Assembly: GCA_050250895.1 (NCBI GenBank) | Contig: JBFWNU010000001.1 | Coordinates: forward strand, 3,459,247 to 3,523,246 | Source of the DNA: Vulcanimicrobiota bacterium | GTDB lineage: Bacteria > Vulcanimicrobiota > Xenobia > Xenobiales > JADMJV01 | Direction of reading: 5' to 3' | DNA length: 64,000 bases | Shown here: one piece after another, positions 9,416 to 54,436 of the stretch | Layout of the letters: each line of letters starts with the position of its first letter | Numbering within the stretch: position 1 is the first letter of the stretch | Notes under the pieces: model-generated | The model's input: the letters and a program-made list of their open reading frames with translations, nothing else | The model's database searches: none | Told to the model about the DNA's origin: nothing | Made by a program: the position numbers and the translations under genes

Positions 9416-10531
9416 ATGCAACGACTGCTCGAGGTTGATCTACTTCTAACCATCCTTCACTCGCTGCCCCACGGACTGCTGGTGGTGGACCGCGAGGGGC
9501 AGCTCATTTTTGCTAACAGCCACGCCGAGGAACTCTTCGCTTATCCGGGTGGGGCGCTGACCGGCCAGCCGCTGGAGGCGCTCTTGCCCGAGCGGTTTCG
9601 CGCCGGCCACCGAGCGTTTCGCCAGGCCTATTTCGCGGCGCCCGAACAACGCGCCATGGGCGAGGGCCGCGACCTCTTCGGATTGCGCCGCGACGGCACG
9701 GAATTTCCCATCGAGATCGGGCTCAATCCTCTGAGCGTCGAGGACGATTTGCTGGTGGTAGCGGCCATTGTCGACATTACCCGGCGCAAAGAGCACGAAC
9801 TACGACTGGCCCGAGCCTTTCACACTGCCGAAGAGGTCAACCGCGAGCTGCGACAGTTGACCTACGGCGTCTCTCACGACCTGACCGCTCCTTTGCGTAG
9901 CATCAGCGGCTTCGTTCAGATACTCAAGCGCAAGTGTGCTGAGCTCGATGCCGGCTCGCAAGAGCTGATCGACCGGACCGTGGCCGCGGTCGTCATGATG
10001 CAGGAGCAGTTGTCGCAGCTGCGTGACAACGCAGCCGTGGATGCCCGCAGCCGGCCTTTCACCGAAGTCGATCTCAACGAGGTCATGGGCACCGTCCAGA
10101 TGGCTCTTGGCGCTTCCATCGAAGAGAGCGGAGCCGAGATTCACTGCGACCAGCTGCCCTTCGTGCTGGGCGACCGTGCTCAGTTGATTCAACTCTTCCA
10201 GAACCTGGTCGGCAACTCCATCAAATACCAGCAGCCTGGCCGCACTCCCAAGGTCAGGATCGGGTTCGACGAGTTCAGGTTTTCGGTGACGGATAACGGC
10301 ATCGGGGTGCCGGCTGAGGATTGGGAGCGAGTCTTCATCCTGTTCGAACGCGCTCATGGTCAACCTTACCCGGGCACCGGCATCGGACTGAGCACTTGCC
10401 GCAAGGTGGTGGAGCGGCACGGCGGCAAAATCTGGGTAGAAACCTCCTCGACAGAGGGCACCCAGATCTGCTTTACTCTAGAAGCGGAGAAAGGATCTCA
10501 ACGTGAAGCGAAATCTGATCATGCTCGTTGA
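9416..10531 (+). CDS. PAS-domain sensor histidine kinase
   Basis: N-terminal PAS-like region (GLLVVDREGQLIFANSHAEELF). H-box YGVSHDLTAPLRSI. N and G boxes (GNSIKY, DNGIGV, GTGIGLS). Confidence 0.85.
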   Translation: MQRLLEVDLLLTILHSLPHGLLVVDREGQLIFANSHAEELFAYPGGALTGQPLEALLPERFRAGHRAFRQAYFAAPEQRAMGEGRDLFGLRRDGTEFPIEIGLNPLSVEDDLLVVAAIVDITRRKEHELRLARAFHTAEEVNRELRQLTYGVSHDLTAPLRSISGFVQILKRKCAELDAGSQELIDRTVAAVVMMQEQLSQLRDNAAVDARSRPFTEVDLNEVMGTVQMALGASIEESGAEIHCDQLPFVLGDRAQLIQLFQNLVGNSIKYQQPGRTPKVRIGFDEFRFSVTDNGIGVPAEDWERVFILFERAHGQPYPGTGIGLSTCRKVVERHGGKIWVETSSTEGTQICFTLEAEKGSQREAKSDHAR

Positions 10532-10916
10532 TGACAGCTTCAACGACGCACTCCTGGCGCAAGAGGCTGTCTCGCTAGCAAACCTTCAGGTCGAGCTTCG
10601 CCATGTCGAAAGTGGGCAAGCCTGCCTGGGTGAACTCAAAAACGCCGACCACCCTCGCCCCGACCTGGTCCTGTTAGACTTGAACATGCCCGGAGTCAAC
10701 GGCTTCGAAGTGCTCAAAGCCTTGCGCGACGATCCCGAGCTTCGTCCCTTGCCAGTGGTCGTGCTGACCAGTTCAGATGCGCCAGACGATGTAGCTCAGG
10801 CCTATGAACTCGGCTGCCGTTCCTACATCAGCAAGCCGGTAGACTTCGACCGTTTCATCCGTGTGCTCGAGCGGCTCTACCATTACTGGTTCGGCACGGT
10901 GGTCTTGCCGGGATAG
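10503..10916 (+). CDS. Single-domain response regulator (receiver)
   Basis: GTG start. IMLVDDS acidic pocket, LLDLNMPGVNG phospho-acceptor Asp, SYISKP lysine. Overlaps the kinase gene by 29 nt. Confidence 0.85.
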   Translation: MKRNLIMLVDDSFNDALLAQEAVSLANLQVELRHVESGQACLGELKNADHPRPDLVLLDLNMPGVNGFEVLKALRDDPELRPLPVVVLTSSDAPDDVAQAYELGCRSYISKPVDFDRFIRVLERLYHYWFGTVVLPG

Positions 10917-13043: not shown

Positions 13044-15026
13044 TTGAGCTACGTACTTTTTCGGGTCTGCTATGCCCGGCGAGTCCGCGATCCAGAAAAA
13101 AGAGTAAGGTCTCTGCTCGCGAATCTGCGCGACCGAATTCCCGAGATCGAGCCGCATTGGGTGCAGTCGGCTCCTTTCTTTCAGGACCCCGAGGTGGGCG
13201 TGCTGGTTCGGCTGCCTCGCGACGCTTCGGAAGAGGTCATCGACCGTATTCGGGATACTCTCGAGCGGCGCCGCATTCATTTTGAAGAACAGCGACTGGT
13301 GGCCGAAGAGACCCGCGAGCCTTTCGGCGCTTTCATCGAGCGTGAGTCGATCGAGAAGATGGTCGAGGCGGGCAAGGCGTTCTGCCACATCGGCTTATTG
13401 ACCGAAGGCCTCGACGAGTTGCAGACGGCCCTCGAACTCGAGCCGGGCTGCACCGAAGCCTATCACTACCTGGTGGCCATCCTGCGCCAGCTGGGGCGCC
13501 CTCAAGAGGCCGAGAGCTGGCTCTTGCGCGGACTTAGTCTCCATCACGATTCTTCGTCGTATCACTATCTGCTGGCTTCGGTCTTTCAAGAGATCGGCAA
13601 ACTCGACGAGGCTCTCTCGCACCTCAAGCGGGCTATCCGCCTGGACCCCGATTCGGGTATTCTCTATTGCTGCCTGGGCAACGTGTTGCAAAAGATGGGA
13701 CGCGAGCAGGCCGCGCGCCTGGCCTATGAAGAGGCGCTGGCCAAGGAACTCGAACTGGCCGAGGCGGCACTGGGTCTGGGGGGGTTGTTGCTCGAGCAGG
13801 GCCGGCTGGGCGAGGCCATGGATTGGCTGGTCCGGGCCATCTCGATCGACTCCAACTGCGTCGAGGCCCGTTTGAAGCTGGGCTGGTGCTATCTGCATCT
13901 GGGCGAAACCGAGACCGCCGAGATCGAGTTCTTGCAGGTGGCCAACGGCCCGGCCGTCGAGTATCACTTTCCGGCCCGCTTCAGCCTCGGGCGTCTTTAT
14001 GTACTTTCGGGTAACGACGCCATCGCCGAAGAGATTCTCGACGAGATCTGCAGCCAGCAACCTGAACTGGGCGAAGCCCATCGCTTTCTGGCCGAGGCTT
14101 GCAGCAATCTGGGCGATCACGAGAAGGCTTTGACCCACTGGGAGAAGGCGTGCGAGCTGATGCCTGACGCCTTCGAGCAACTGCGGCCTCACATGGCCCT
14201 GGCCCTCTCGCGGGCGGGTCGCCTGGTCGAAGCCGAGGCGGTGCTGCTGGAGGTGCTCGAGCGCACCGGCGCCCGCGCCGACATCCTCGAGGTGCTGGCC
14301 TCGGTGCACATGGCTCGCGAGGATTGGAAGCTAGCCCGTGAGGTGCTCGAACAGGGCGAGGCGGTGGATCCCGAGTCGGCCATGATCGCCTTCCAGCAGG
14401 GCTGGGTGAGCGAGAACCTGGGCGAAACCCGCCAGGCCTTCGCCTACTACAACAAGGCCGTGCGCCTCGACCCCGAACTGTACGAGGCTTATTGCGGACT
14501 GGGCTGGCTCTACTATGAGTTGGGTGACTACGACATCGCCCTGGTCCTGTTCGAGCAGGCCCACCAGCTGGCTCCTGACAACGCCGAGTATCTCGACCAC
14601 ATCGGCTGGGTGAATCTCTTGCTAGAGAATCACAGCGAGGCTCTGGGCTGGTTCGAGAAGGCGGTCAAGCTCGAGCCTGACTGCGCCTTCTTCCGCAGCC
14701 ACCGAGGGGCCGCCCTGTTCCACCTGGGCCTGCACGAACACGCTCGTCTCGAACTCGAAGACGTGCTGGCCGGCGAGGTCGACCCGATGGTCGAGGCCTT
14801 TGCTCGCTATGTGCTGGGCCTGGTGCTCTCGGAAGAGGGCAAGGCAGAGCAGGCCGAAGAAGAGTTCATCAAGTCGACCCAGACTGACGAGCTACCCCCC
14901 GAGTTCGTGGCCATGACCTCGAAAGGGCGGCTGGCTGGCGGCAATCCCTGGCAGAACTACAGGCACGGCGCTCAAAAGGGAGATAGCGCCCTGTTGAGGA
15001 AACTCTCTGGCGTAGTCAACGAATAG
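13044..15026 (+). CDS. TPR-repeat protein (660 aa)
   Basis: TTG start with GGGGAGG SD. Many TPR units (AYHYLVAILRQLGRPQEAESWLLRGL; AYCGLGWLYYELGDYDIALVLFEQAHQLAPDN). Confidence 0.82.
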   Translation: MSYVLFRVCYARRVRDPEKRVRSLLANLRDRIPEIEPHWVQSAPFFQDPEVGVLVRLPRDASEEVIDRIRDTLERRRIHFEEQRLVAEETREPFGAFIERESIEKMVEAGKAFCHIGLLTEGLDELQTALELEPGCTEAYHYLVAILRQLGRPQEAESWLLRGLSLHHDSSSYHYLLASVFQEIGKLDEALSHLKRAIRLDPDSGILYCCLGNVLQKMGREQAARLAYEEALAKELELAEAALGLGGLLLEQGRLGEAMDWLVRAISIDSNCVEARLKLGWCYLHLGETETAEIEFLQVANGPAVEYHFPARFSLGRLYVLSGNDAIAEEILDEICSQQPELGEAHRFLAEACSNLGDHEKALTHWEKACELMPDAFEQLRPHMALALSRAGRLVEAEAVLLEVLERTGARADILEVLASVHMAREDWKLAREVLEQGEAVDPESAMIAFQQGWVSENLGETRQAFAYYNKAVRLDPELYEAYCGLGWLYYELGDYDIALVLFEQAHQLAPDNAEYLDHIGWVNLLLENHSEALGWFEKAVKLEPDCAFFRSHRGAALFHLGLHEHARLELEDVLAGEVDPMVEAFARYVLGLVLSEEGKAEQAEEEFIKSTQTDELPPEFVAMTSKGRLAGGNPWQNYRHGAQKGDSALLRKLSGVVNE

Positions 15027-15160: not shown

Positions 15161-15955
15161 TCAAGTCCCCCGCAGTCGTATCGCGGTTTCTCGTTGCAAA
15201 CGCTTGGCCTGGGTCAGCAACCGATAATCCCAGGGAAAGTCATGCTCGACCCTGGCCTGAATGCTGGGCGTCAGAGACTGAAATTTGTCGACCACCTCGT
15301 CCTGGCGGGGGTGCTGCATGCCCAGTTGAACCGAGGCGCCGGCTACCCGGCGGCGGGTGTAGGCGAGGGGCAGGCCCATGCTCGAAAACAGGTGGGGCAG
15401 GTCGTGGTCGAGCGAATCGGCCAGACCCACGTACCAGCAGCGTTCCAGCAAGGCCAGCGCGGCGCGATACGCCTGTTCGCCGGCCAGGGCAAGCCCGGTA
15501 AATCGCCGAGCATAGAAGTCGCAGGCGCTACTGCGCGCCTGTTTGAGGAAGCAGTCGCCATACCACTGTTCGAAAGAGGCAACCGCCAGGCCCCGGCTGC
15601 GGGCGAAGTTGTAGCGGCTGACGCAGCGCTCGGCCGGGTCGCGCAGCACCGTAAAATAGCGGGCTTCTCGGCCGCCAAATCGTTGATGAATTCCATAGTA
15701 GGTCCGGTGCCCGCACAGCACTCGCACCTCGGCCAGTTCAGGGGCGGTCAAATCTTCAAATTGCGGTAGGCCGTGGTGCAGGCGATCTTGATAGCCCCAC
15801 TGGCCTAGATGAAATACCGCTCGATTCCATTCCAAGTGCTGCCAGAGGTGTCCGTTGATGGTCGTGCCGGCCGCCTTGGGCAGATGGAGAAAGACCCAAA
15901 GGACAGGCGCGCTAGTCGGCAAGGCCGACCCCGTCTTGAGCGAGCTCGAGAGCAA
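15161..15955 (-). CDS. Sulfotransferase (family-2-like)
   Basis: 5'-PSB-like FLHLPKAAGTTI and 3'-PB-like TVLRDPAERCVSRY. The ATG at 15955 overlaps the upstream gene by 44 nt; an alternative TTG sits at 15922. Confidence 0.75.
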   Translation of the reverse strand: MLSSSLKTGSALPTSAPVLWVFLHLPKAAGTTINGHLWQHLEWNRAVFHLGQWGYQDRLHHGLPQFEDLTAPELAEVRVLCGHRTYYGIHQRFGGREARYFTVLRDPAERCVSRYNFARSRGLAVASFEQWYGDCFLKQARSSACDFYARRFTGLALAGEQAYRAALALLERCWYVGLADSLDHDLPHLFSSMGLPLAYTRRRVAGASVQLGMQHPRQDEVVDKFQSLTPSIQARVEHDFPWDYRLLTQAKRLQRETAIRLRGT

Positions 15956-17753
15956 TGATAGAACTGGCGTGCATCAACTTGCCGATTCCCACCTCAGAGG
16001 TTTCCATGGCCGACAGAAGTTTGGCCACATTGATGTAGCGAAACGGATGTCGCTCGATTCCCTCGCTCCGCCATTGACGGGCCAGCAAAGCTAGCGCCTC
16101 GCGCACATCCTCCACCCCCTGTTGGGCGCGGACAGGTTCAGCCTTGCTGTTAAAGCGAATCGAGGCGGGCAAGAGTTCGGCCGCCCCAACGCGCATCAGC
16201 CAGCGCGTGACCCCGTCGCGGCAGAAAAGGCGGGGGGGTAGGGCCAGGCAAAACTCTAGAGCCCTCCGATCGAGCAAAGGATAGGCGTAGGCCACACCAT
16301 GCTCTCTGCCACTGGCATACCACTGTTCGAGCCGGGCGGTAGTGCCACCCTGGCGCAGCAGCTGCAGCTGGGTTTCGTGCACGCCGTAAGGCAGGACCCA
16401 GCGAGTGGGGTACCGTTCGCCCCTTCGACTCAGCTCTTCTCTGAGAAAAGGTGAAGGCTTACGGCTGGCGCCGAAGGCCAGCAAGTCGGAAAGATGGTGG
16501 CGCCAGCTTCTGGGGGCCCAGGGCAAGAGGCGATGGAACAGCAGTGGTAAGATGCCCCAGCGCGCGATCTGTTTCCAGGGTTTGCCCCGAGCGCATGCCT
16601 GACGATAACACTCGCGCCATTGGCCCCGCTTGAGCAGGCTGGCCAGCATGCCTCGTCCGTTGAACGAGAACCCCTCGTCACCGCCCCAACCCGACAAAAT
16701 GACCGGCAAACCCCGACGTTGGGCCTTTTGCTGAATGGCCAGTTCCGACACAAGGGCCCTCAAGGTGGGTTGGCAGGCGGGATTGCGACGAAAGAAGTCG
16801 GCCAGGGTCGAAGGGTCATGGCAGGTGGTCTCGAGCTGCATGCCCTCGCTTTCACAGAACTCGAGCAGGGTCTGGAACTCTTGTTCACCCCGGCACTTTT
16901 CGGTCAACCAGGTGAAGGCCAGCGGCGGCGCCAGGCCCTGACGACGACGGCTGCGCGCCGTGAGCGCCGCTACGGCTGACGAATCCAGGCCGCCGCTAGC
17001 GTGCACGGCCACGGCCGGGTAGCCCTGAATGCGATCCTCGACCACTCGCTCGAGCAGTTCTCTGGTGGCTACCAGGTAATCGTCGTCTTCGGCCAGTTGT
17101 AGCTCTGGCAGGTCGTCAGGCCGCCAATACCGAGTGAGACTCAATCCGGCCGCCGTCCATTTGAGGGTGTGGGCGGGTGGCACCTTGAAGATGTGCTCGT
17201 AAAAGGTGCGCTGCGGGTCGACGAAGGCTTTGCGGGAGAGGCTCGTGAGCAAATAGGTCTCGTCGAGCTGGGTCGACGCCTCGGTGGCCAGGAGGGCGCG
17301 CACATCGCTGGCCAGCAGAAAGGCCGTGCCGACGCGGCTGTAGTACAGAGGGCGGCTGCCGATATGATCTCGGCCACACAGCAACGCTTGAGTGCGCTGG
17401 TCCCATAGCGCGAAGGCGAAGTCTCCGTAGAGCTTGTTGGGAAAGGTTTCTTGCCAGTGATGATAGGCGGCCAGCATCGTCTGGCTGGGGTTTGGACTCT
17501 GGCCCCCGACCGAGACCGGACAATCCAAGCGGGCTTCGGCCACCAGGGCCGCTTTTTCATCGGCTACGGGTGAGGCGTTGGCGGCCTCGGGGCCGGTCTG
17601 GTGGAATTTGAGATAGCCCAGGGCAACTCCGGGAGCACACCAGCGGAAGGTGCCATGGGGACCAAAACCGAGCCCCAGAAGCCGTTGCAACATCGCCTCC
17701 AGGCGACCCTGACAGTCTCTGGCCACCGGGTCGACGACCGCCACGATGCCCAC
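15912..17753 (-). CDS. Asparagine synthetase B-like protein, candidate lasso peptide cyclase (C protein)
   Basis: 613 aa with a GTG start. The N-terminus GIVAVV lacks the catalytic Cys of true AsnB (MCGI). PP-loop VHASGGLDSSAVAAL. Sits next to a PqqD-family gene and a lasso-type precursor. Confidence 0.8.
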   Translation of the reverse strand: MGIVAVVDPVARDCQGRLEAMLQRLLGLGFGPHGTFRWCAPGVALGYLKFHQTGPEAANASPVADEKAALVAEARLDCPVSVGGQSPNPSQTMLAAYHHWQETFPNKLYGDFAFALWDQRTQALLCGRDHIGSRPLYYSRVGTAFLLASDVRALLATEASTQLDETYLLTSLSRKAFVDPQRTFYEHIFKVPPAHTLKWTAAGLSLTRYWRPDDLPELQLAEDDDYLVATRELLERVVEDRIQGYPAVAVHASGGLDSSAVAALTARSRRRQGLAPPLAFTWLTEKCRGEQEFQTLLEFCESEGMQLETTCHDPSTLADFFRRNPACQPTLRALVSELAIQQKAQRRGLPVILSGWGGDEGFSFNGRGMLASLLKRGQWRECYRQACARGKPWKQIARWGILPLLFHRLLPWAPRSWRHHLSDLLAFGASRKPSPFLREELSRRGERYPTRWVLPYGVHETQLQLLRQGGTTARLEQWYASGREHGVAYAYPLLDRRALEFCLALPPRLFCRDGVTRWLMRVGAAELLPASIRFNSKAEPVRAQQGVEDVREALALLARQWRSEGIERHPFRYINVAKLLSAMETSEVGIGKLMHASSIIALELAQDGVGLAD

Positions 17754-17857
17754 CTCAGCTCGCTCTCTTCGCCTGACGCATCCGCGCGTTTTTCCACGCC
17801 GCCTTGGCGGCTACCTTTGAACCAGGGTCTGGCACTCCGTGGGCGAATTGGCACAGC

Positions 17858-18136
17858 ATGACACAGTTGAAGCCGACCAGTATCGTAACGCCCAGTGAGA
17901 GCGTCGTGGCCACAGAATTAGATGGAGAGATCGTGATGATGTCGGTGGAATCGGGCAACTACTTCGGGCTCGACGCCATCGCCACCGATGTCTGGAAGTT
18001 GGTCGATGGTCAGCGCTCGGTGGCTCAGATCGTGGACCAGTTGTGCCAGGAGTATGAGGTGGACGGGCAAGAGTGCCTCGACCACGTGCTCGAGCTGTTC
18101 GAGCGGATGCACGAACAGGGTGTTATCAGGGCATAG
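17858..18136 (+). CDS. PqqD-family peptide chaperone (RRE, lasso B1-like)
   Basis: 92 aa from the first ATG: ELDGEIVMMSVESGNYFGLDAIATDVWKLVDGQRSVAQIVDQLCQEYEVD...LELFERMHEQGVI, a typical PqqD/RRE pattern. Confidence 0.82.
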   Translation: MTQLKPTSIVTPSESVVATELDGEIVMMSVESGNYFGLDAIATDVWKLVDGQRSVAQIVDQLCQEYEVDGQECLDHVLELFERMHEQGVIRA

Positions 18137-19019
18137 TCTTGCGGATGTGTCCCGTGATGGCGAACCGGTAGTGAGAAAACTCCGGGGCGCTGGGGAAGAC
18201 GGGGCGTAGCTCATGCAGGCGCGCGCTTGGAAAAACCAGTAGGGCGTTGTCGGTGTGGACGAAAGTGGTGAAGCCGACCGGGTCGCAATCGCCGCTGGTC
18301 GTGTCTTCGTCGTAGAGGCGAAATTCGCCGCCCTGGAAGCGAGCGGGGCCTAGCTCGAAGGTGTAGACGTAACTCAAGACCCGGTCGGGGTGCTGGCTGC
18401 TGCGGTCGCGGTGGATTGGAAAGGCACCTCCGGGTCCATAACCCGTAAGCTTTCCCTCGAACCGGGCGAGGTTGAACTTGGGCACGGCCAGGTTAACCCA
18501 ATGCTCGGCGCAGATCTCCTCGAGCTGGGTGCAAATCCAATCTCTGATACCCGCCAGCGGCTGGGACCTGGTTCGTCGAAAGGAATGGTCAGCCAGGCGA
18601 AGATGGCCGCTCTCGATGGGGGTGAACTGGTCAGGCTGAGCCTGCACGTAGTTTACAAGGGCCCCGTGCAGCTCGAGGGGGAGCCATTGTTGTCGGCGGT
18701 GGAATGGGGAGGGAGCAATACCCTGGAGGGGCGGTGGACAAGCCCCTTGCAGGATGCTGAGGGCGATCGCGTTGCGCACCTTGCGGGGGTCGGCCGCCAG
18801 GGCAGCCTGGTAGTATCGCTCGGCCTCGTCTAGTTGGCCGCTACACCGAGCCAGGTGGCCGCGCAATCCAAGCACGATGGCGGGGTCGCAGTCACGGTTC
18901 TGATCGAGCCAGGCGCCCGCCCTCGCGAAGTCGCCTTGGGCCAACAAGACCCGAAAGAATTCTCGGATGTCAGGTTTTGCGGTCAAGGGGCTGGCGTTTC
19001 TGGAAGAACTCCTGGCCAT
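18126..19019 (-). CDS. 2OG-Fe(II) oxygenase-like protein with N-terminal TPR-like segment
   Basis: HxD...H facial triad candidates (FPIHRD ... ARLHELRPV) and a GGEFRLYD jelly-roll motif. The N-terminus has one or two TPR-like units. ATG at 19019 is preferred because the longer track ORF overlaps the divergent kinase gene. Confidence 0.65.
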   Translation of the reverse strand: MARSSSRNASPLTAKPDIREFFRVLLAQGDFARAGAWLDQNRDCDPAIVLGLRGHLARCSGQLDEAERYYQAALAADPRKVRNAIALSILQGACPPPLQGIAPSPFHRRQQWLPLELHGALVNYVQAQPDQFTPIESGHLRLADHSFRRTRSQPLAGIRDWICTQLEEICAEHWVNLAVPKFNLARFEGKLTGYGPGGAFPIHRDRSSQHPDRVLSYVYTFELGPARFQGGEFRLYDEDTTSGDCDPVGFTTFVHTDNALLVFPSARLHELRPVFPSAPEFSHYRFAITGHIRKTMP

Positions 19020-19062
19020 CCTCCAGGAGGAGGTTGCAGCTTCGCAGGCGCAGGTGGGTCTC

Positions 19063-19884
19063 ATGGAGCATTGGTACACTTGCCACGGCTTGTTGATTCG
19101 TTCCGAGCTAGCTTTGCCAGAACTGCGCCAGGCCAATCCTGGTGAGACCGCGCTCTCGATTGTGCAGGGCCATCTTCCCCCCGGCCGCCCAGGTCGCCAG
19201 GTCGAGGAGCAATTGGCCACGCTGCGTATCCCCGGGGTGGCCAATCTTCGCATCGCCGAGGGTCGACAGATCACCGTCGAGTTGGCTCCGCGTGCTACAG
19301 TCGAGCAGGTGCGACCCTATCTGCTAGGCACGGGTCTGGCTGCCATCGTGCATCAGAGAGGACTGCTTCCTTTGCATGCCAGCGGCCTGCTAATGGATGC
19401 ACAGGGCGTTGTGCTGGCCGGAGTCAAGGGCAGCGGTAAGTCGACTTTGGCTGCCTACGGCTTGAGTTCGGGCTACCACCCTCTTTGTGACGACGTGGCC
19501 GTGATTCGATTCTCGCCAGCGCCCGAGATCGTCGCCGGGCCCGGTCGCCTCTGGTTAAACGACGATAGCCTCGAACAAGTGGGTCGCCGACCAAGCTGCG
19601 CGATCAACAAAGGACTCAAACGCGGCCTCGATTTTGAAGCTCGCGGGGCCTATTCGATGAGCAAGATCTTCATCCTGGACCCAAAATCAAGCCAATGTGT
19701 TCGCCTGCGAGGGCTCGAAGCACTCGGGGCTCTCCACAAGTGTACCTTCAGGAAGGGCTTCATCCCCGCGCGCGGCCATGTAGAACGGCTCTGCCACCTG
19801 TGCCGCCACGTGCCCGTCTATCGCTTGGGGCGAAGTGAGGTTTGGAGCCTGTCGGACCTGCTTACGCAGGCCATTCGCACCTAG
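19063..19884 (+). CDS. HPr kinase-related kinase (HprK-related kinase A/B type)
   Basis: Start MEHWYTCHGLLIRSELALPEL. LPLHASGL followed by P-loop GVKGSGKSTLAAYG and CDDVAVI. The start is inferred from the typical N-terminus of this family. Confidence 0.75.
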   Translation: MEHWYTCHGLLIRSELALPELRQANPGETALSIVQGHLPPGRPGRQVEEQLATLRIPGVANLRIAEGRQITVELAPRATVEQVRPYLLGTGLAAIVHQRGLLPLHASGLLMDAQGVVLAGVKGSGKSTLAAYGLSSGYHPLCDDVAVIRFSPAPEIVAGPGRLWLNDDSLEQVGRRPSCAINKGLKRGLDFEARGAYSMSKIFILDPKSSQCVRLRGLEALGALHKCTFRKGFIPARGHVERLCHLCRHVPVYRLGRSEVWSLSDLLTQAIRT

Positions 19885-20015
19885 CTCGCTCTATAGAAGG
19901 CACCATCCTGGTCTTCGATGTCATAAGGGCCACCCAGGGTTGCTGCCACTACCGGCACCGGTAGGAACTTGAACTCGGGTTTCGACCAGGGTTTCTTTTT
20001 TTTAGGGTCACTCAT
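19881..20015 (-). CDS. Candidate lasso-type RiPP precursor peptide (44 aa), not in the ORF track
   Basis: My translation: ATG at 20015, TAG at 19883-19881, giving MSDPKKKKPWSKPEFKFLPVPVVAATLGGPYDIEDQDGAFYRAS. Thr at -2, Gly1, Glu7/Asp8, bulky F13/Y14/R15 and a C-terminal Ser. It is the last gene of the minus-strand tailoring operon. Confidence 0.7.
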   Translation of the reverse strand: MSDPKKKKPWSKPEFKFLPVPVVAATLGGPYDIEDQDGAFYRAS

Positions 20016-20037
20016 GTGACCACACTTCGCGGTCGAT

Positions 20038-20694
20038 TTAGTCTACCCTCTGTAGCCAACAAAAACTGTCTTCGCCACCGCTTAGAGAGCGCGAATAGCC
20101 GAACCGGGAAAAATCGCGAGCGTAGAATTCACCTACCATCTGCTCGAGTTCGGCGTCGTAAGCTTCGAATCCGAGACCCGCCGAAGCATTCGCCCTCGGC
20201 AGTCCGTCGAAGGGTAGTTGCAGGCGGCCAAAGAGCCCGGCCAGGTCTTGCTCGAGGTGTTCGAAGCGGCAGACGACATCCACGGCCAGTTCGTCTTCGA
20301 TCAACAGGGTGTCGACCATAGGCCGCAGCAGGAGACGCGCCCACTTGTCCTGGCTTGAAACCAATCGTTTGAGGACTGACCTGGGATCCTCGGGCAGCGG
20401 GGTGTCTCGATACAAGAAGGCGGCCGCCGAGAGAAAACGGCTGTAAGGATTTCGAACCACCGCGAATTTCAGATACTCATCCCAGGGGGGCAAGAAGGGC
20501 CGCAACTGGGTAGCGCTGACATGCCCGTGCCGCAGTGCGGCCAGGGCCTGCACCGGCGCGCACCGTGGTCCGAAAAGCAGGCTCTGTTCCCAGTCGGTGG
20601 CGGCCAGATGCGGTCGCAGGCTTTGACGGATCGCGTGGGAAGCCGTGCGGGGGACGGCCAGAAAGATGAACTGGTGCCGGAACGAGACGATCAA
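20038..20694 (-). CDS. Sulfotransferase (family-2-like)
   Basis: FIFLAVPRTASHAIRQSL (5'-PSB-like), VVRNPYSRFLS (3'-PB-like), RFEHLEQDL. 4-nt overlap with the upstream gene. Confidence 0.75.
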   Translation of the reverse strand: MIVSFRHQFIFLAVPRTASHAIRQSLRPHLAATDWEQSLLFGPRCAPVQALAALRHGHVSATQLRPFLPPWDEYLKFAVVRNPYSRFLSAAAFLYRDTPLPEDPRSVLKRLVSSQDKWARLLLRPMVDTLLIEDELAVDVVCRFEHLEQDLAGLFGRLQLPFDGLPRANASAGLGFEAYDAELEQMVGEFYARDFSRFGYSRSLSGGEDSFCWLQRVD

Positions 20695-21509
20695 GGCTTG
20701 GGCACCAGGTAGCCAAACCTGGCCATGGTTTGGCCGTGTTCGCGTTCGAGCAGCTCTCTTTGAGCTTCATCCAAATGATTGCGGCCGTGGCCGGCTCGGC
20801 CGCTTCGAAAGAAGCTGCCGGAACGGTGCGGACCCTCTCGAAAACCGTCGGCTTGCTCTTGTGCTTGCAGACGATCGAAGGTGGAAAACTCGATAGCTCG
20901 GGCCACTCGTTGTTCTTCGCGCGGTTGGTTCAAAAACTCGAGCGCCGAACCAAAAGTCTGGTGAGGGTGAGCCAGCAGGTCTTCGTAGCGGATCACCAGC
21001 ACCCGAAGTTCGGCAGCCAACCAGCTCTCGACATGGCCACTCCAGCTGCCTACCAGTTCTGGGACCTGCAACCCACGATTGCCCTGAGCCAGGCGATAAC
21101 CGGGGTCGGCCATCCAGCCCGTCACCCGCGCGAGACTCGCGTTGCTGTGATGGGCAAACGAGACGGCCACGTCGTGTGGGTCGCGAACGAGGTAGATGAC
21201 TCCGAAGGTCGCCTCGGGGGGAAAGAGTCTCGGTTGATAGAGATCGTGAACCTTCAAAAAGAGCGGGTCGGTGGTCTGGGCGGCCAGGTGGCGGTAGGCG
21301 ATGGCCCTCCACTCGGGAAGTTCTTCCTCGGTAGCATCCGCCGTTTTTAGTTCCAGCGTGGCATCGAGCAACGCCCGACTGCTGCCCCAGGGTAAGGTGC
21401 CCAGCGCGTTGATCGAGACCGGCACTTTGGCCTGACTGAGATAGTTGGCTAGCAAGACCCTGAGCCAGGTATTGCCGGACTTGGGATACGAGGCAAGCCA
21501 AACGATCAA
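20691..21509 (-). CDS. Sulfotransferase (Sulfotransfer_1-like, aryl/cytosolic type)
   Basis: IVWLASYPKSGNTWLRVLL (PKSGTTW-type 5'-PSB) and IYLVRDPHDVAVSFAHH (RDPRDxxVS-type 3'-PB). Confidence 0.82.
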   Translation of the reverse strand: MIVWLASYPKSGNTWLRVLLANYLSQAKVPVSINALGTLPWGSSRALLDATLELKTADATEEELPEWRAIAYRHLAAQTTDPLFLKVHDLYQPRLFPPEATFGVIYLVRDPHDVAVSFAHHSNASLARVTGWMADPGYRLAQGNRGLQVPELVGSWSGHVESWLAAELRVLVIRYEDLLAHPHQTFGSALEFLNQPREEQRVARAIEFSTFDRLQAQEQADGFREGPHRSGSFFRSGRAGHGRNHLDEAQRELLEREHGQTMARFGYLVPKP

Positions 21510-22342
21510 GAACGAATCCTTTCTGCCAGTTCGGGCAACCGACCGGCCGGCACCCTGGCTCGCCAGAACTCGAGGTCAGAACCGGCCAAGTGACTCGCTT
21601 GACGAAAGTTCTCGCTCATCAGACCCAGGGCCCTCAGACCGGAGCGCGACGGAGTGTATCTGAGCAGAACTTCAAGGCCCTCGCGCCGACTCGACCGGGT
21701 GAGCGAGATTTGCTCGCCATTCCATAGACTGAGGTCATAGACACGTCGAACGAGCACGGGTGTGCCTGGTCGGGCCGGTTTCAGATGTCGCGCCAGGTTG
21801 GGCCGGCGGACCAACCAGTCAGAACCCCTGGGTCGTCCCAGGGTGATGTAGGGTGGGCCCGGCACGAGTCGATTTTCGGCCAGCACCACCAGTTCGTCAC
21901 TGATGAAATCGCAGCCCTGCTGATGCAGCAGATCGATGAGGGTCGACTTGCCCGCCCCGGAGATACCGACAAAGATCATGCCGCCACTTGGGCCGACCAC
22001 AGCGCTGGCCTGAAGGACCGCTCTGCCGGACAGAGTCAGCAGCACACCCAAGACATTCCCTAGAAGAAACGTCTCGATATCCTGACTGGTCACTTCTGCC
22101 TCGCTCTCGACGGTGACCTGATGGTTGGGGCGGATCAAGTATCTGGCCACTTTGGGCACGTGAAGGAGTAGCAGGCCGTCGCTGGTCTCCCAGAGCGGAC
22201 CGTGGCGGCGGCCGCCTGGCAGGCGTCGGGGTACGGGGCCGCGTCGGACCGTCCAATCGGGAGCGGTGTCGGTGGGAGTCAAGCGTTGGCTGGACCAATC
22301 CAGGCCCAGGGCCAGGCCAAAAGCGTTGTAGACTTCGAGCAT
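21506..22342 (-). CDS. Second HPr kinase-related kinase
   Basis: N-terminus MLEVYNAFGLALGLD, LQASAVV, P-loop GISGAGKSTLIDLL, SDELVVL. 4-nt overlap with the downstream sulfotransferase. Confidence 0.75.
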   Translation of the reverse strand: MLEVYNAFGLALGLDWSSQRLTPTDTAPDWTVRRGPVPRRLPGGRRHGPLWETSDGLLLLHVPKVARYLIRPNHQVTVESEAEVTSQDIETFLLGNVLGVLLTLSGRAVLQASAVVGPSGGMIFVGISGAGKSTLIDLLHQQGCDFISDELVVLAENRLVPGPPYITLGRPRGSDWLVRRPNLARHLKPARPGTPVLVRRVYDLSLWNGEQISLTRSSRREGLEVLLRYTPSRSGLRALGLMSENFRQASHLAGSDLEFWRARVPAGRLPELAERIRS

Positions 22343-22354
22343 CGGTGCGCCTCG

Positions 22355-23179
22355 CTAGCCGCGCAACCGGTAGCCAAAGTTTGCCAGCAGGGCCTCACAC
22401 TCGCCGTAGACCCGGTTGAGTGTCGCCAGATCCTCGCCACTCAAGCGCCCCCACTGTTGCTCGTTCATGTTGCGCAAGGGCTCATCATAGCTTCCTTTGA
22501 CCGGTAGCTGCTGGCGCAGGTCGAGGTCGGCCAGTTGCGGCATCAAGCCGGCGATCTGGGCTTGCACCTGTTGAGGTCGGTCGCACATGTCTTCATAGCT
22601 AAAGAATGTCCCCAGATGGCCATAGCGGCGGAGATTCTCGGCTTGCGCCTCGAGACAAAGGGCCAGGTGGAGAGCGGCCAGAGCCAGGCGCTCCTGACGT
22701 TCGTAACCCGCCAGGCAAAGGCGGCGCGAGATTCCTTCGGCGGTCGCATACGGGTCGCGAACCATGAAAAGGAAGCGAGCATCCGAGAAGCTGTCCACCA
22801 GTTGGTCGACGAGCAGGAGAAAGGGCGGAGACTTCTCGACGAAGACGGTCGCCCCGGCGCTCCGTGAGAAGGCCTGAAAATACCAGGCTCGGCGAGTGGT
22901 CACCCAGTCAAAGTTGGCAGGGTTCTGAAAGGCAGCGACCCATTGTGGCCTGGTGGCCCAGATGGTGGCCGCGCCGAGGGCGCGCGAACTCGGACCGGCG
23001 AAGCCGAAAGTGTGTTGGCCTTCGCGGGGCAGGTTCCAGGTGGCCCGACTGGTGGCCAGAGCGTTTCGCAAGAATGTGCTGCCGCTATTGTTAGGGCAAA
23101 TGACAAAGAGATGATGCTCGACCAGAGTGGGCAGGTCGGCAAGCGCCCCTCGGAAGATCTTGGTGGCCCCGGATTTCAA
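22355..23179 (-). CDS. Sulfotransferase (third sequence type)
   Basis: LFVICPNNSGSTFLRNAL (P-loop-like 5'-PSB) and FLFMVRDPYATAEGISRR (3'-PB-like). Confidence 0.7.
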   Translation of the reverse strand: MKSGATKIFRGALADLPTLVEHHLFVICPNNSGSTFLRNALATSRATWNLPREGQHTFGFAGPSSRALGAATIWATRPQWVAAFQNPANFDWVTTRRAWYFQAFSRSAGATVFVEKSPPFLLLVDQLVDSFSDARFLFMVRDPYATAEGISRRLCLAGYERQERLALAALHLALCLEAQAENLRRYGHLGTFFSYEDMCDRPQQVQAQIAGLMPQLADLDLRQQLPVKGSYDEPLRNMNEQQWGRLSGEDLATLNRVYGECEALLANFGYRLRG

Positions 23180-24105
23180 AGCTCGGATAGGTTGGCCTCA
23201 GGGAAGGTCGTCGTGGCCGGGTTTCGGTTTTGGCCCGAATCCCCCCTGCTCGAGCTGTCGTGGGGGCGCACCCTTAGAGCTTGCAGGTGGGTGGACGCGT
23301 CTAGAAAGCTGCGCTGCCAACGAGCCCAGCAGTGGAGAAACCTTGGCGAGGCCAGCCCTCGCCAGAGGGCCGAACTGGACCATGGCTTGACCGGAGTATT
23401 GTAATGCAAGACCCTGGCCTGGAGCCAGGAAATACCGCTGTGGGCCGAGATGGTCTGGGCGTGGAGTAGTAGATAATTGAATTCACAGCCGACCAGGGTT
23501 TGCTTGCCCTGGAGCAGCCGATTGAGAACCAGTTGGTCGGTGTGCGGTTGCTCGACGCCGGACCAGGTGTCGGGCCTCAGCAAACCCAGCGCCGCCTGAT
23601 AGGTTGATGGTTCGAATTGGCTCGGATCGACCACCATGAATCCCGAGTTGAAGGTGTTCTTCAAGCTGCCGCCGGCCAGCGGCGAGTAGGTCACCGGGTC
23701 GCGAGGCAGACCTCGGTAGTAGGCACCGTCTCCGGCACAAAGGAGGGGACCCGTGTGGTCCAGGACGGGCTCGATCGAATCAAGAAAGAGCAGGTCGCTG
23801 TCGCAGAAGAACAGGCGTTCATAGCGGGTCCACCGGAAGAGTTCCAAAGAATAGAAACGAGCCTTGCGATCGTTTAACTCAGGCCGAGCCAGGACCAACT
23901 CGCCCACCTGTGCTTGAAGTTCGCGGCTGACCGGCACCAACCGGGCCCCGGTAGCTTTTTCGAGCAATCTGCGCGAAGAACCGGGCAGACGGTGATGCAG
24001 CACCAGGATGTCTCCGCCGAACCAGGGGTTATGGCGGCGGAAGGAGTGGAGCATCACCAACGTGCCTAGCACAAAGCTCTGACTGGTGACGGTAATCAGG
24101 GCCAT
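23176..24105 (-). CDS. Glycosyltransferase family 8-like
   Basis: ITVTSQSFVLGTLVMLHSF, DxD (FFCDSDLLFLD), FNSGFMVVD. Start MALITV at 24105 is preferred; alternatives at 24120 and 24162. Confidence 0.72.
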   Translation of the reverse strand: MALITVTSQSFVLGTLVMLHSFRRHNPWFGGDILVLHHRLPGSSRRLLEKATGARLVPVSRELQAQVGELVLARPELNDRKARFYSLELFRWTRYERLFFCDSDLLFLDSIEPVLDHTGPLLCAGDGAYYRGLPRDPVTYSPLAGGSLKNTFNSGFMVVDPSQFEPSTYQAALGLLRPDTWSGVEQPHTDQLVLNRLLQGKQTLVGCEFNYLLLHAQTISAHSGISWLQARVLHYNTPVKPWSSSALWRGLASPRFLHCWARWQRSFLDASTHLQALRVRPHDSSSRGDSGQNRNPATTTFPEANLSEL

Positions 24106-24197
24106 TCGCGAATGGGCCATAGGGTCAGGTTGGCTGGAAGCGGCCTTCGTCCCTTTGAACAACCGGGCAGCGATTCTGCAATCAGGGCGGTTAGACC

Positions 24198-24579: not shown

Positions 24580-25818
24580 ATGGCAGTTCCTGGCATCGCT
24601 TTCGGGGGGCAAAATTTCGCAACCAATCAACTTTTTCAACGGCCGCTCAGCAGCCCACCGCTACAGCAGATCGCCGGAAACCCTCAGTTAGCCGGTCAGT
24701 TTCAGCAGCTTCTTCAGGTCCTGATCGGCGCCCTCTCGCAGCTCAGCCAGGGCTACCAGTCCTTCGGCGGCTACCCCACCCCTGGTTTCCCCAATCCAGG
24801 CTTCCCTGGACAGCCCCCCTTCGGAACTCCTCCCTTCGGCACTCCCACCCCGGGGACGCCGATTTTCGGCGGCTACAACCCACCCGTGGGCGGCTATCCC
24901 ACCCCCGGCACGCCGACCTTTCCCCCCGCACCCGGTGGCGCCAGCCCCACCGATCCTCGCTTTTTCAACTGGGGCGTAGCCGCCCATAACGGCAACGCCA
25001 AGCAAGCCGTCAGCACCCAACAGCGCACCAGCATCAGCGGCCTCGACGACGGCCAGCGCGCCATTCTTCACCTCTGGGGTCGTCAGATGACGGCCGGCGG
25101 CAAGCAAGACGGCAGTATCTATTTCAACGTGCTCAATGACAAGACCGGCGCCTTCACCCCGGCCGAGCACGCCCTGGTCGAGCAGGCCTACGCCCGCGAG
25201 ATGGCGATGTATGGCGGCGTCACCGGTAAAGAGCTAGATCGCGCTTTCTTCGGCCTCTACGGCCAGATGACCGGCGAAGACATCTCGGGCAAGTATGGCA
25301 ACGCGCCGGTCCACTTCTCTAACGGCCAGCAACTGGATCTCAGCAACAATAACCAGGCTCTGGGAGAGTTCGGCAACACGGTGATGCGCCTGTGGGGTCA
25401 CGACCGTCTCGACAACGGCCGCAACGACGGCTCGATCCTGGCCTTCAGCCTGCAGAATCCCGACGTTGCCTTCGACTCGGCGGCCTCGGGGGCCAACCAG
25501 CAGACCATCGAGTCGCTGGCTGCCGCCGATATGGCCGACGACGGCGTGTTGAACAACAGCAGCCTCTCCAAGGCTTTCAGTCAGACCCTCGACCAGGCCT
25601 ACTTCGGAGCCCCCTCTGGCAACAATCAGCAGGTGCTCCAGGGGGCCGGCATCAGCACTGTCCAGGTCGGCTCGATTCTCGATAAGATCAAGAACTCGCC
25701 CATCCCGGGTGTGCCGGCCGGAGTCGACATCACCAACATCGCCAACATCGGCAAATGCCCGGTCCTGGGTCAGTCGGTTCAACAGAGCGGTCTCGGCGGC
25801 GTTGGCTTCTTCGGCTAA
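24580..25818 (+). CDS. Hypothetical Pro/Gly-rich protein with duplicated LWG...DGSI module
   Basis: 412 aa. GYPTPG/FGTP repeats at residues about 70-115. Two similar modules (AILHLWGRQMTAGGKQDGSIYFNVLN and TVMRLWGHDRLDNGRNDGSILAFSLQN). No signal peptide recognised. Confidence 0.6.
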   Translation: MAVPGIAFGGQNFATNQLFQRPLSSPPLQQIAGNPQLAGQFQQLLQVLIGALSQLSQGYQSFGGYPTPGFPNPGFPGQPPFGTPPFGTPTPGTPIFGGYNPPVGGYPTPGTPTFPPAPGGASPTDPRFFNWGVAAHNGNAKQAVSTQQRTSISGLDDGQRAILHLWGRQMTAGGKQDGSIYFNVLNDKTGAFTPAEHALVEQAYAREMAMYGGVTGKELDRAFFGLYGQMTGEDISGKYGNAPVHFSNGQQLDLSNNNQALGEFGNTVMRLWGHDRLDNGRNDGSILAFSLQNPDVAFDSAASGANQQTIESLAAADMADDGVLNNSSLSKAFSQTLDQAYFGAPSGNNQQVLQGAGISTVQVGSILDKIKNSPIPGVPAGVDITNIANIGKCPVLGQSVQQSGLGGVGFFG

Positions 25819-25839: not shown

Positions 25840-26664
25840 GTGAAGCCGATCGCAGTGAAAGTCTGGCAGCCAATCTGGCTGCCGGGCGTTTCTCTTAGAG
25901 AGACCACCGCACTTCAAGAGCGAGAGCTGCCGTGCCACGTTCACCACAGCGATATCTTCACGCTGGCTCTTTCGGGTGGGGGCGAGATCACCGATGTGAT
26001 CTCGGGCAAGACCTTTTTGGTCGAAGAGGGCGATTGTATGGTCGGCCACGCCGGCACCGCCCTTTCGGGCCGGATCATCGGTCGTAGTCTAAGCCTGGTT
26101 CTGCCAGGCAGAGCGAGCCGTTCTCGCCAGGCACTGCAGCGACGAACCGAGCATTCCGTGCGCGATGAGGTGCTGGTCGCCAGGTTTTTGGAGTTGTTTG
26201 GGGGGCTTACCAGGGCCGACGACCTGGACCAGCAATTGCATTTGATGGAGCAGCTCACGAGCTGTCTGCAGGACTTCGAACTGGCCGGGCCCTGCTCGGC
26301 CGGGCCCCGGGTCACGCCCGAGCAGACGGAGGTCCTCGAGCGAGTGCGCGCTCAGATCGACGAGCGCCCAGGCCGGAAGCTGACCCTCGAGGAGCTGGCC
26401 CGCCAGGTGAGTTGGCATCCCCACCATTTGCAGAAGCTCTTTCGAGCCCGCTACGGTTTATCGCCCGGGCGCTATCAGAATCAGTTGCGCCTGGAACAGG
26501 CCGTGCGTCTGCTGCGCGAGCAACGGGCCGCAGCCGAAGTGGCCCTCGAGGTCGGCTTCACCGACCAGAGCCATCTGATTCGAGCCTTCCGTCGTTGGCA
26601 CGGGTGCACCCCCGCCGCCTACATGTCAAGTTTGTCCAATCCGTCCGGCGGCTGGGTCGAGTAA
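25840..26664 (+). CDS. AraC family transcriptional regulator
   Basis: C-terminal dual HTH (LEELARQVSWHPHHLQKLFRARYGLSPGRYQNQLRLEQAVRLL...VGFTDQSHLIRAFRRWHGCTPAAY) with an N-terminal cupin-like domain. GTG start. Confidence 0.88.
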   Translation: MKPIAVKVWQPIWLPGVSLRETTALQERELPCHVHHSDIFTLALSGGGEITDVISGKTFLVEEGDCMVGHAGTALSGRIIGRSLSLVLPGRASRSRQALQRRTEHSVRDEVLVARFLELFGGLTRADDLDQQLHLMEQLTSCLQDFELAGPCSAGPRVTPEQTEVLERVRAQIDERPGRKLTLEELARQVSWHPHHLQKLFRARYGLSPGRYQNQLRLEQAVRLLREQRAAAEVALEVGFTDQSHLIRAFRRWHGCTPAAYMSSLSNPSGGWVE

Positions 26665-26673: not shown

Positions 26674-27339
26674 ATGATATTCACTCAAGAACAAGCCTCA
26701 ACCTACAATGATCGTTACGAACGCTTGGCGCCCCTCAAGGACGTCCTCCATCTGTGCGCGGCTCGCGTGCTCGAGCCTTTGCCGCCCCAAGCCCGAGTGC
26801 TGGTGGTGGGAGCCGGAACCGGCAACGAGTTGCTCTATCTGGCCGAGCATTTTCCAGCCTGGCAATTTACTGTGGTCGAGCCTTCTGAACCGATGCTGGC
26901 CGTCTGTCGCGAGCGGGTCGAGCAAGCCGGCATCGCCGGGCGGACCACCCTGGTTCATGGCTTTCTGGAAGATGTTGCGGTCGAGCCGCACCACGGAGCC
27001 ACCAGCTTCTTGGTGTCTCATTTCCTGACCGAGCGCGACCGTCGGCTGGGCTTCTTTCGGGCCATCGCCGCGCGGCTTCACCCCGGCGGAGTCCTGGTCA
27101 ACGCCGACTTGACTCACGGTGGAGAGGATCACGAGCAAGTGATGGACCTGTGGTTTCGAACCCTGAGCTACTCTTTCCCGGAGTCGTTCCAGGTCGACAA
27201 CTATCTCGAGCACTTCAACCGCGAGGTTTCGCTCTTGGCCGATGACGAGATTCGCCGGTTGCTGGTCGAAGCCGGGTTTCGCCAACCGACACTGTTCTTG
27301 AAGACCCTGATGATCAACGCCTGGTTTGCTCGTCTGTAA
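26674..27339 (+). CDS. Class I SAM-dependent methyltransferase
   Basis: Motif I VLVVGAGTGNELLYLA and post-I FTVVEPSEPML. 221 aa. Confidence 0.85.
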   Translation: MIFTQEQASTYNDRYERLAPLKDVLHLCAARVLEPLPPQARVLVVGAGTGNELLYLAEHFPAWQFTVVEPSEPMLAVCRERVEQAGIAGRTTLVHGFLEDVAVEPHHGATSFLVSHFLTERDRRLGFFRAIAARLHPGGVLVNADLTHGGEDHEQVMDLWFRTLSYSFPESFQVDNYLEHFNREVSLLADDEIRRLLVEAGFRQPTLFLKTLMINAWFARL

Positions 27340-38341: not shown

Positions 38342-38394
38342 GCTCCCTTTATCGGTCGACGGTCTGCAGTCTTAAGAGAATCAGGCATACGCCG

Positions 38395-54410: not shown

Positions 54411-54436
54411 TGGTGGCAGTTCGCCACCAGCCCCGG

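Follow-up and report, generated by a model that had tools for sequence, protein, structure and literature searches.

In this work, we focus on a 64-kb stretch of the genome of a Vulcanimicrobiota bacterium (contig JBFWNU010000001.1, positions 3,459,247 to 3,523,246), which we call the window, meaning the stretch at its full length. We particularly focus on a group of eleven genes within it, four of which encode sulfotransferases (ST1 to ST4). This region is probably a biosynthetic cluster for a lasso peptide of the paeninodin type, that is, a kinase-associated class II lasso peptide, the product of which is probably both sulfated and sugar-bearing. On balance, we favor a picture in which the short tail of this peptide, which ends in ...F-Y-R-A-S, is a probable hub for several anionic decorations. 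The identity of the genes, the folds of their products, their synteny, the gene fusions and the conservation of the precursor are established here. Kinase-type lasso clusters are already known, and what is new is that such a cluster comes with an uncharacterised tailoring module for glycosylation and sulfation.

The main body of the cluster is read from the minus strand. In the 5' to 3' direction, it starts with a family 8 glycosyltransferase (GT8, 23176..24162, with an alternative ATG start at 24120), followed by ST4 (22355..23179), the HprK-like paralogue K2 (21506..22342), ST3 (20691..21509), ST2 (20038..20694) and the precursor peptide A (19881..20015). Then come an oxygenase that joins TPR repeats to a 2-oxoglutarate (2OG)-Fe(II), prolyl-4-hydroxylase-like domain (18126..19019, where 19019 is the predicted start of an open reading frame (ORF) that extends to 19274), the lasso macrolactam cyclase (C protein, asparagine synthase-like, 15912..17753) and ST1 (15161..15955). 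The plus strand contributes a PqqD-type recognition element for peptides that are made by the ribosome and modified after translation (RiPPs), known as B1 (17804..18136), and the HprK-like peptide kinase K1 (19063..19884, a predicted start in an ORF that is open from 18967). The six genes from GT8 to A form a tight operon in which neighbors overlap by 4 bp, as do K2/ST3 and GT8/ST4, or are otherwise separated by gaps of 12 and 22 bp.

The lasso assignment is carried by the cyclase, the PqqD protein and the precursor. The cyclase matches Pfam Asn_synthase (E 2.5e-25) as well as GATase_7, and, within NCBIfam, it comes closest to the lasso isopeptide cyclase, at 243 bits for a family cut-off of 525; its closest relatives reach 37% identity at most. 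The PqqD protein matches Pfam PqqD (E 7e-21) and NCBIfam lasso_PqqD_Bac (E 9e-21, 73.8 bits for a cut-off of 80). The oxygenase is recognized through Pfam 2OG-FeII_Oxy_3 and TPR, the matches of its catalytic domain to prolyl hydroxylases of the PDB being weak, and it has homologues in other lasso loci.

An argument for considering these genes as a functional unit comes from their recurrence in other genomes. We compared the window with 156 related loci (labelled L001 onwards), 83 of which were seeded from the cyclase; loci were also fetched via ST4 or ST1. Among the cyclase-seeded loci, an HprK-like kinase is found in 63, ST3 in 33, GT8 and ST4 together in 14, ST2 in 6 and ST1 in 3. The complete set, namely ST1-ST4, GT8 and a kinase beside the cyclase, PqqD and precursor genes, is present in 8 other loci of the 156: L005 (Sphingorhabdus soli D-2Q-5-6), L009, L020 (Sphingopyxis sp. 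HIX), L100, L103, L105, L113 and L154. Nine further loci carry three of the four sulfotransferases. The original prediction, made from the sequence of the window by itself, held that four sulfotransferases for one peptide would be exceptional; these loci contradict it, and the eight complete ones rule out that the four-enzyme set is unique to the window. The canonical order, on one strand, is AspH-K-ST3-A/PqqD-CYC-ST2-GT8-ST4-ST1, in which AspH stands for an Asp/Asn beta-hydroxylase, K for the kinase and CYC for the cyclase. As the same gene set is found in a conserved order in many unrelated genomes, the cluster lies far beyond chance. The related loci span Alpha- and Gammaproteobacteria, Campylobacterota (through a Halarcobacter metagenome-assembled genome) and Acidobacteriota, and their cultured carriers include Sphingorhabdus soli D-2Q-5-6, Pontixanthobacter gangjinensis and the Sphingopyxis strains HIX and QXT-31. 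A published Pontixanthobacter gene list displays the same neighborhood (locus L083). Within this subfamily, the window copy is an outlier: it is rearranged, has another oxygenase and an additional kinase, and lacks both the leader peptidase (B2) and the exporter (D).

The precursor peptide A (MSDPKKKKPWSKPEFKFLPVPVVAATLGGPYDIEDQDGAFYRAS) is the only precursor-like ORF of the window and the sole match there of the hidden Markov model (HMM) built for such precursors. Its leader carries the WxxP motif in the form WSKP, and its junction reads ...AATL|GG.... An iterated HMM search yielded more than 65 homologous precursors, adjoining cyclases in many loci. They have in common a leader of the form K(K/R)xW(S/A)xP and a T-x-[G/S]-G junction, and nearly all of them end in a Ser. 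The original prediction proposed a core of 17 residues; in its numbering, which we keep for individual residues, GGPYDIEDQDGAFYRAS contains Y4, D5, E7, D8, D10, Y14 and S17. The peptide itself is real, but the family alignment makes its core probably one residue shorter. The window core has an Asp or Glu at positions 7-9 in either register, while the core of L083 (GGSGNIRATENIFYATS) has no acid at these positions in the 17-residue register. When the closest cores, those of L020 (GGGGDAEDQDDTFYDAS), L004 (GGSGNKNDQDDQFYRTS), L113 (GGGGGPEDQDDAWYDAS) and L103 (GGAFGQNDQDDAFYDPS), are aligned from their C-terminal ends, an acid stands seven residues from the end. Because only a start at the second Gly, with Thr at -3, places the ring acid at position 8 or 9 in every homologue, the core is probably the 16-residue GPYDIEDQDGAFYRAS, with a predicted cleavage after T-x-G, a G1-D9 ring and a seven-residue tail. 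Asp9 of this register is the Asp10 of the longer one. Several loci (L024, L025, L027, L030, L033, L036, L023 and L021) carry 3-6 divergent precursors with a common leader, some of their cores holding Cys pairs (CC or C-x-C), which points to combinatorial sets of substrates served by a single tailoring machinery.

The tail of the precursor covaries with the tailoring genes. Tyr14 is conserved, in a C-terminal motif of the form [F/W]-Y-x(0-3)-Ser-COOH. The last 8 residues include a Tyr in 24/24 loci (33/35 precursors) when GT8/ST4 are present, in 8/14 loci (24/38 precursors) when there is only ST3, and in 4/15 loci (5/18 precursors) when there is only the kinase. The contrast between GT8/ST4 loci and kinase-only loci gives a Fisher p of 8e-7, a co-occurrence statistic that ignores shared ancestry and relies on a precursor HMM seeded with Tyr-containing sequences. 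Together with the fold of ST4, described below, this invariance suggests that a tyrosine is implicated, as had been anticipated, albeit not the one that had been emphasised. As precursors without a tail Tyr are found in 6/14 ST3-only loci, the acceptor of ST3 is not universally Tyr, and the idea that ST3 always acts on the tail Tyr is unsupported.

All four sulfotransferase-like genes of the original prediction are indeed present on the minus strand and have a sulfotransferase fold. They had been assigned to at least three sequence types; in fact there are four, since every pairwise BLASTP comparison among ST1-ST4 gives E >= 0.14, that is, no significant similarity. PDB searches with the single sequences of ST1, ST2 and ST4 returned almost no matches, and profiles or structural models were needed to place them. 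ST1 appears to be of the carbohydrate type (Sulfotransfer_2-like). Its Pfam match is borderline (Sulfotransfer_1, 21.9 bits for a cut-off of 22), but the call is secured by about 65 orthologues, many of which carry PF03567, and by its AlphaFold model (predicted local distance difference test, pLDDT, 92.5), the top matches of which are the heparan sulfate 2-O- and 6-O-sulfotransferases (E 2e-7, template modelling (TM) score 0.63). ST2 belongs to the Sulfotransfer_2 family over its full length (Pfam E 3e-7) and has six orthologues at 39-42% identity, each adjoining a lasso cyclase or a GT8 gene; no solved relative was found for it, even with a profile search of the PDB. ST3 belongs to the Sulfotransfer_1 family (Pfam E 7e-27), and its best solved relatives are the glycopeptide antibiotic sulfotransferases Teg14, Teg12 and StaL and the cytosolic sulfotransferases that act on phenols (SULTs), matched near full length at E 2e-15. 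The hydroxyls that the Teg and StaL enzymes sulfate are phenolic or benzylic ones, carried by a peptide scaffold that is constrained. ST4 belongs to the Sulfotransfer_3 family (Pfam E 5e-10) and has 453 homologues at E<=1e-10. Its profile retrieves the CurM sulfotransferase (2e-8) and TPST1 (2e-4) from the PDB, and its AlphaFold2 model (pLDDT 96.4) is placed by Foldseek closest to human TPST2 and TPST1 (E 2e-7, TM 0.58-0.61), with the CurM and OLS sulfotransferases next.

All four enzymes had been described as carrying the two motifs, 5'-PSB and 3'-PB, that bind the sulfate donor 3'-phosphoadenosine 5'-phosphosulfate (PAPS). This holds for ST1 (PKAAGTT and RDPAERCVS) and ST3 (PKSGNT and RDPHDVAVS), in which they are canonical, and for ST2 (PRTASH and RNPYSRFLS), in which an Arg takes the position of the Lys of its orthologues, but only in part for ST4, the motifs of which (PNNSGST and RDPYATAEG) are atypical. 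As for the glycosyltransferase, it matches Pfam Glyco_transf_8 (E 2e-13) and displays a DSD (DxD) motif at residue 121 and KPW at residue 259. Its only solved sequence relatives are glycogenin-1 structures, with a weak E of 0.008; glycogenin is a GT8 enzyme that glucosylates a Tyr.

The connection between these enzymes is also visible in the way their genes are coupled. On the same strand, the kinase and ST3 genes are adjacent in 43/44 loci, GT8 and ST4 in 30/37 and ST4 and ST1 in 14/15. Fusions into single ORFs are also seen: kinase and ST3 in L012 (12072-14087), L017 (7844-9850), L018 (15366-17951), L048 (15170-16864) and L094 (6194-8227), GT8 and ST4 in L006 (4701-6512) and L010 (11568-13400), and a kinase with a TPR/2OG oxygenase in L003 (17481-19391). 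A tandem ST4-ST4 protein is encoded in L045 (18754-21435).

The cluster carries two HprK-like kinases and its precursor ends with a Ser. Both are hallmarks of the paeninodin-type phospho-lasso family, and both had been overlooked in the first reading of the cluster. Indeed, the HprK homologues of this family (PadeK, ThcoK and SyanK) act on the precursor, phosphorylating its C-terminal Ser (Zhu et al. 2016, as reported in PMC8498205 and PMC9266682), and ThcoK and BsfK depend on the His-Lys-Asp-Asp tetrad for their activity (PMC9266682, PMC10368454). K1, which weakly matches NCBIfam HprK_rel_A and ScmC, has an intact HKDD tetrad, and K2, which weakly matches HprK_rel_B, has a degenerate one (QKDE). 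The same division is found elsewhere. The tetrad is kept in 47/49 kinases that do not adjoin ST3, and also in the 29 cases of a single kinase adjacent to ST3. When a locus has two kinases, the copy adjacent to ST3 is degenerate and the other is HKDD in 10/11 loci, including the window (QKDE), L024/L025 (RKDG), L027/L030 (HKDG), L047 (HKDE) and L091-L093 (HKDN), the exception being L072, in which both copies are HKDD. This looks like a subfunctionalisation, in which the ST3-linked kinase domain is non-catalytic and probably binds the precursor tail for ST3 while K1 phosphorylates. K2 would thus probably be a pseudo-kinase partner of ST3.

The count of available hydroxyls indicates where the sulfates could go. 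In the cores of four-sulfotransferase loci L103, L105, L113 and L009a, the only hydroxyls are those of the tail Tyr and of the terminal Ser, and the window core has three (Y4, Y14 and S17). The side-chain hydroxyls are too few for four enzymes and, if the Ser is taken by the kinase, at least two of the sulfotransferases must use the GT8 sugar or a hydroxyl made by an oxygenase. The relatives of the four sulfotransferases, given above, agree with this. The original prediction had mentioned these two acceptors as alternatives to Tyr, and without them the presence of four enzymes would be hard to explain. A hydroxyl introduced by an enzyme is a credible acceptor for sulfate because AspH tracks ST3, being found in 24/40 ST3-positive loci and 0/26 ST3-negative ones, and correlates with GT8/ST4 too, and because distant ST4-like proteins are fused to AspH. 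In the window, the TPR-2OG oxygenase may fill the AspH role. As for the sugar, the anticorrelation expected if GT8 stood in place of the PsmN-like NTP-transferase is not significant among the loci (p = 0.11). The fused proteins just mentioned lie outside lasso clusters: L119 (45-1367), L120 (2729-4057) and L121 (9971-11296) encode ST4-like proteins, at about 30% identity, joined to an AspH domain, which hints at a hydroxylate-then-sulfate enzyme pair.

We infer the chemical steps, the acceptor sites and the productivity of the window copy, and we hold each single acceptor assignment with less confidence than the whole. In the pathway that we propose, the PqqD protein would bind the WxxP leader, and K1 would phosphorylate the C-terminal Ser, like its characterised homologues. 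The TPR-2OG oxygenase would perhaps add one further hydroxyl. GT8 would add a hexose, either on the tail Tyr, in a glycogenin-like manner, or on the phospho-Ser, in a pseudomycoidin-like manner. ST1 and ST2, as carbohydrate-type enzymes, would sulfate different positions of the sugar; ST4, paired with GT8, would sulfate the tail Tyr14 or the GT8 sugar; and ST3, in complex with K2, would sulfate another hydroxyl of the tail, be it a Tyr or one made by the oxygenase. The cyclase would close the Gly1-Asp9 ring. A bolder version of this pathway, which we regard as rather doubtful, would have the tail Tyr O-glycosylated by GT8, the sugar sulfated by ST4, ST1 and ST2, and K2 presenting the tail to ST3 for sulfation of an enzyme-made hydroxyl. 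If this were true, the product would be a threaded peptide bearing a heparin-like polysulfated glycan and a phosphate, and both Tyr-linked sulfated glycosylation and pseudo-kinase-guided sulfation would be RiPP modifications for which we found no report.

Besides the limits of the co-occurrence statistics given above and the ST3-only loci without a tail Tyr, several points weigh against the tail as a hub for decorations. ST4 has an Asn for the catalytic Lys/Arg (Arg in TPST) and a Gly for the Ser that binds the 3'-phosphate, as seen in its alignments to the CurM sulfotransferase (VRHPYSVIES) and TPST1 (VRDGRASVHS). Of 40 aligned orthologues, at least 90% keep PNNSG[ST], and the group also has E-G in place of the Ser of the 3'-phosphate-binding motif. 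ST4 may thus be no ordinary PAPS enzyme, and its group may have an unusual catalytic arrangement or use another donor, despite the TPST-like fold. The tail Tyr14 could be a mere steric plug. In addition, several expected functions were not found in the 64-kb window: a B2 leader peptidase, which 42/83 cyclase-seeded loci have (best E 0.36 with an HMM from 41 homologues, and tblastn negative), an ATP-binding cassette (ABC) exporter (tblastn and HMMs from related loci), an NTP_transf_5 protein of the PsmN type (HMM from 29 homologues, best E 0.024 for an unrelated ORF) and, outside the cluster, PAPS-synthesis genes (Pfam scan).

The plug is at the heart of a rival explanation, which we judge unlikely, in which all the sulfates are on a glycan and Tyr14 only plugs the ring; the C-terminal Ser would then bear a polysulfated sugar, making the product a phospho-glyco-lasso peptide. 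A precedent is pseudomycoidin, from Bacillus pseudomycoides, which carries hexoses on its phosphorylated C-terminal Ser (Zyubko et al. 2019, as reported in PMC8498205 and PMC9266682). The carbohydrate type of ST1 and ST2 fits this explanation, the fused GT8-ST4 ORFs point to steps that follow one another on a single moiety, and a Phe or Trp mostly stands before the tail Tyr, which is frequent for plug residues. Yet the association of the tail Tyr with GT8/ST4, compared with its scarcity in kinase-only loci, argues for a role beyond that of a plug, and the structural proximity of ST4 to protein-tyrosine sulfotransferases and of ST3 to phenol sulfotransferases also speaks against glycan-only sulfation.

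The missing functions, in turn, are compatible with a decaying or otherwise non-productive window copy, which we find somewhat less likely still. The absence within 64 kb of B2, of an ABC exporter and of a nucleotidyltransferase, the QKDE tetrad of K2 and a gene order that is rearranged over both strands, unlike the canonical single-strand operon, would all fit with decay. Nevertheless, all eleven genes are intact, of orthologue length and with their motifs conserved. Other loci with two kinases also have a degenerate copy adjacent to ST3, a pattern closer to subfunctionalisation than to decay. A B2 gene may be present elsewhere in the 3.9-Mb contig.

The original prediction favored Tyr4, flanked by Asp5, Glu7, Asp8 and Asp10, as a residue O-sulfated in the fashion of RaxST or TPST, with the four sulfotransferases acting directly on the 17-residue peptide. 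We consider this improbable. The acidic setting of Tyr4 is real, ST4 does have a TPST-like fold and ST3 does resemble enzymes that sulfate phenols of peptide scaffolds. However, Tyr4 is replaced by Gly in the closest cores (L020 and L004), is absent from all other four-sulfotransferase cores and lies inside the predicted macrolactam ring; it was therefore rejected as the sulfation site. Moreover, with three hydroxyls in the window core and two in some four-sulfotransferase cores, the four enzymes cannot all use side chains. An acid directly next to the Tyr is a property of the non-conserved Tyr4 only. The conserved Tyr14 has Phe at -1 (Phe, Trp, Thr or Val in its relatives) and Arg at +1, with acids four to six residues before it in the window and three or four before it in most relatives.

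As the 83 loci had been chosen through the cyclase, we also ran the reverse test, seeded from the sulfotransferases. In a metagenome scan, ST4 orthologues with at least 43% identity lie beside lasso genes wherever the flank is long enough, except in L089, while homologues at 24-33% identity are not in lasso loci, except in L112, which has a cyclase homologue some 6 kb away. The contexts of ST1 homologues are lasso clusters in 4/4 cases, one of them in a Halarcobacter metagenome-assembled genome at 32% identity. The sulfotransferases are therefore found with lasso genes rather than tracking with polysaccharide genes, and they appear to be lasso-peptide tailoring enzymes, as first proposed. It is then very improbable that they, like GT8, serve a polysaccharide or lipid pathway and merely neighbor the lasso genes, since, even though L154 and L001 have sugar or polysaccharide genes beyond the cluster and the window has a GT2 gene (29990-31222), ST4- and ST1-fetched loci carry lasso genes in nearly every judgeable case, the sulfotransferase genes are interleaved with those of the precursor, kinase and cyclase and overlap with their neighbors, and fusions tie ST3 to the peptide kinase; on the basis of these context searches, we rejected such a pathway. 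In L154 (10807-20534) and L001 (8671-9744), the genes directly beyond the lasso operon are sugar-nucleotide or polysaccharide genes (epimerase/dehydratase, DegT aminotransferase, Bac_transf and GT4), and they might supply an unusual sugar for GT8 or merely be a neighboring O-antigen locus.

The comparison with characterised systems helps to situate the tailored tail that we propose. The window cluster shares with the paeninodin type the HKDD kinase, the Ser-ending precursor, the WxxP leader and a split B1 (PqqD) protein with a cyclase. It differs by its four sulfotransferases, GT8, TPR-2OG oxygenase and second, degenerate kinase, and by the absence of B2, D and a nucleotidyltransferase nearby. 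The presence of HPr-kinase and sulfotransferase genes in lasso clusters was noted in 2014 (PMC4289311) and again in 2016 (as reported in PMC8498205). No sulfated product is described for the paeninodin-type family in the lasso reviews up to June 2026. Pseudomycoidin shares with the window a kinase and a sugar-adding step on the lasso tail, although its sugar enzyme is an NTP_transf_5 protein (PsmN), while here the candidate is GT8, followed by sulfotransferases.

Among the sulfating systems, TPST1/2 and RaxST resemble the present one through the Sulfotransfer_3 assignment of ST4, its TPST2/TPST1-nearest model (TM ~0.6) and a conserved Tyr with acids 3-4 positions upstream; they differ in that the conserved Tyr of the cluster is preceded by Phe or Trp rather than by an acid, and RaxX is a linear peptide. 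The Teg12/Teg13/Teg14 and StaL enzymes, to which ST3 is closest, work on aglycones of non-ribosomal origin without a kinase partner, while ST3 is tied to an HprK-like domain by coupling or by fusion. In the sulfonated lanthipeptides, a Tyr is sulfonated on the cyclised peptide by a cluster-encoded PAPS sulfotransferase, SslST or SscST (PMC11143521, 2024). These belong to another RiPP class, with one sulfotransferase and neither sugar nor phosphate, and the main text of that study is without lasso clusters. It names RaxX, some methanobactins, conopeptides and the two lanthipeptides as sulfated RiPPs, sulfation being rare among ribosomal peptides generally (PMC11143521). As for lasso peptides, sulfation is not among the modifications listed in the reviews of 2021, 2022 (the text of which does not contain "sulf") and June 2026, and targeted searches were also negative. 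The earlier remark that no sulfated lasso peptide has been isolated thus agrees with the reviews to June 2026, which report none.

The window cluster is therefore a member of a widespread, uncharacterised subfamily in which a tail of about seven residues would be phosphorylated, glycosylated, hydroxylated and acted on by up to four sulfotransferases, and its cultured carriers make the prediction directly open to mass spectrometry. If it proved true, sulfation would be a new lasso modification, the enzymes would provide peptide or glycopeptide sulfotransferases of distinct regiospecificity for engineering, and K2 would exemplify a pseudo-kinase taken on as a partner that presents the substrate. 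A knot that is polyanionic and resistant to proteases could act as a mimic of sulfated glycans or of sulfotyrosine ligands.

Around the cluster, no Asp beta-hydroxylase or FG-GAP genes were found in the window (tblastn and HMMs from related loci), and a scan for promoters and terminators gave matches no commoner than in shuffled sequence. The nearest candidates for transport and processing are an MFS_3 transporter (31246-32481), a protein of the TauE/SafE sulfite-exporter family (32453-33163) and an S9 prolyl oligopeptidase (40205-42160). Just past GT8, on the plus strand, lies a gene for a 412-residue Gly/Pro/Gln-rich protein without a Pfam match (24580-25818), followed by an AraC-type regulator (25840-26664) and then a methyltransferase (26674-27339). 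Two large TPR-repeat proteins are also encoded on the plus strand, one directly beside ST1 and convergent with it (13044-15026), the other at 91-3564. Finally, two-component signalling genes are abundant in the window (9416-10916, 37208-40230 and 43588-54812).

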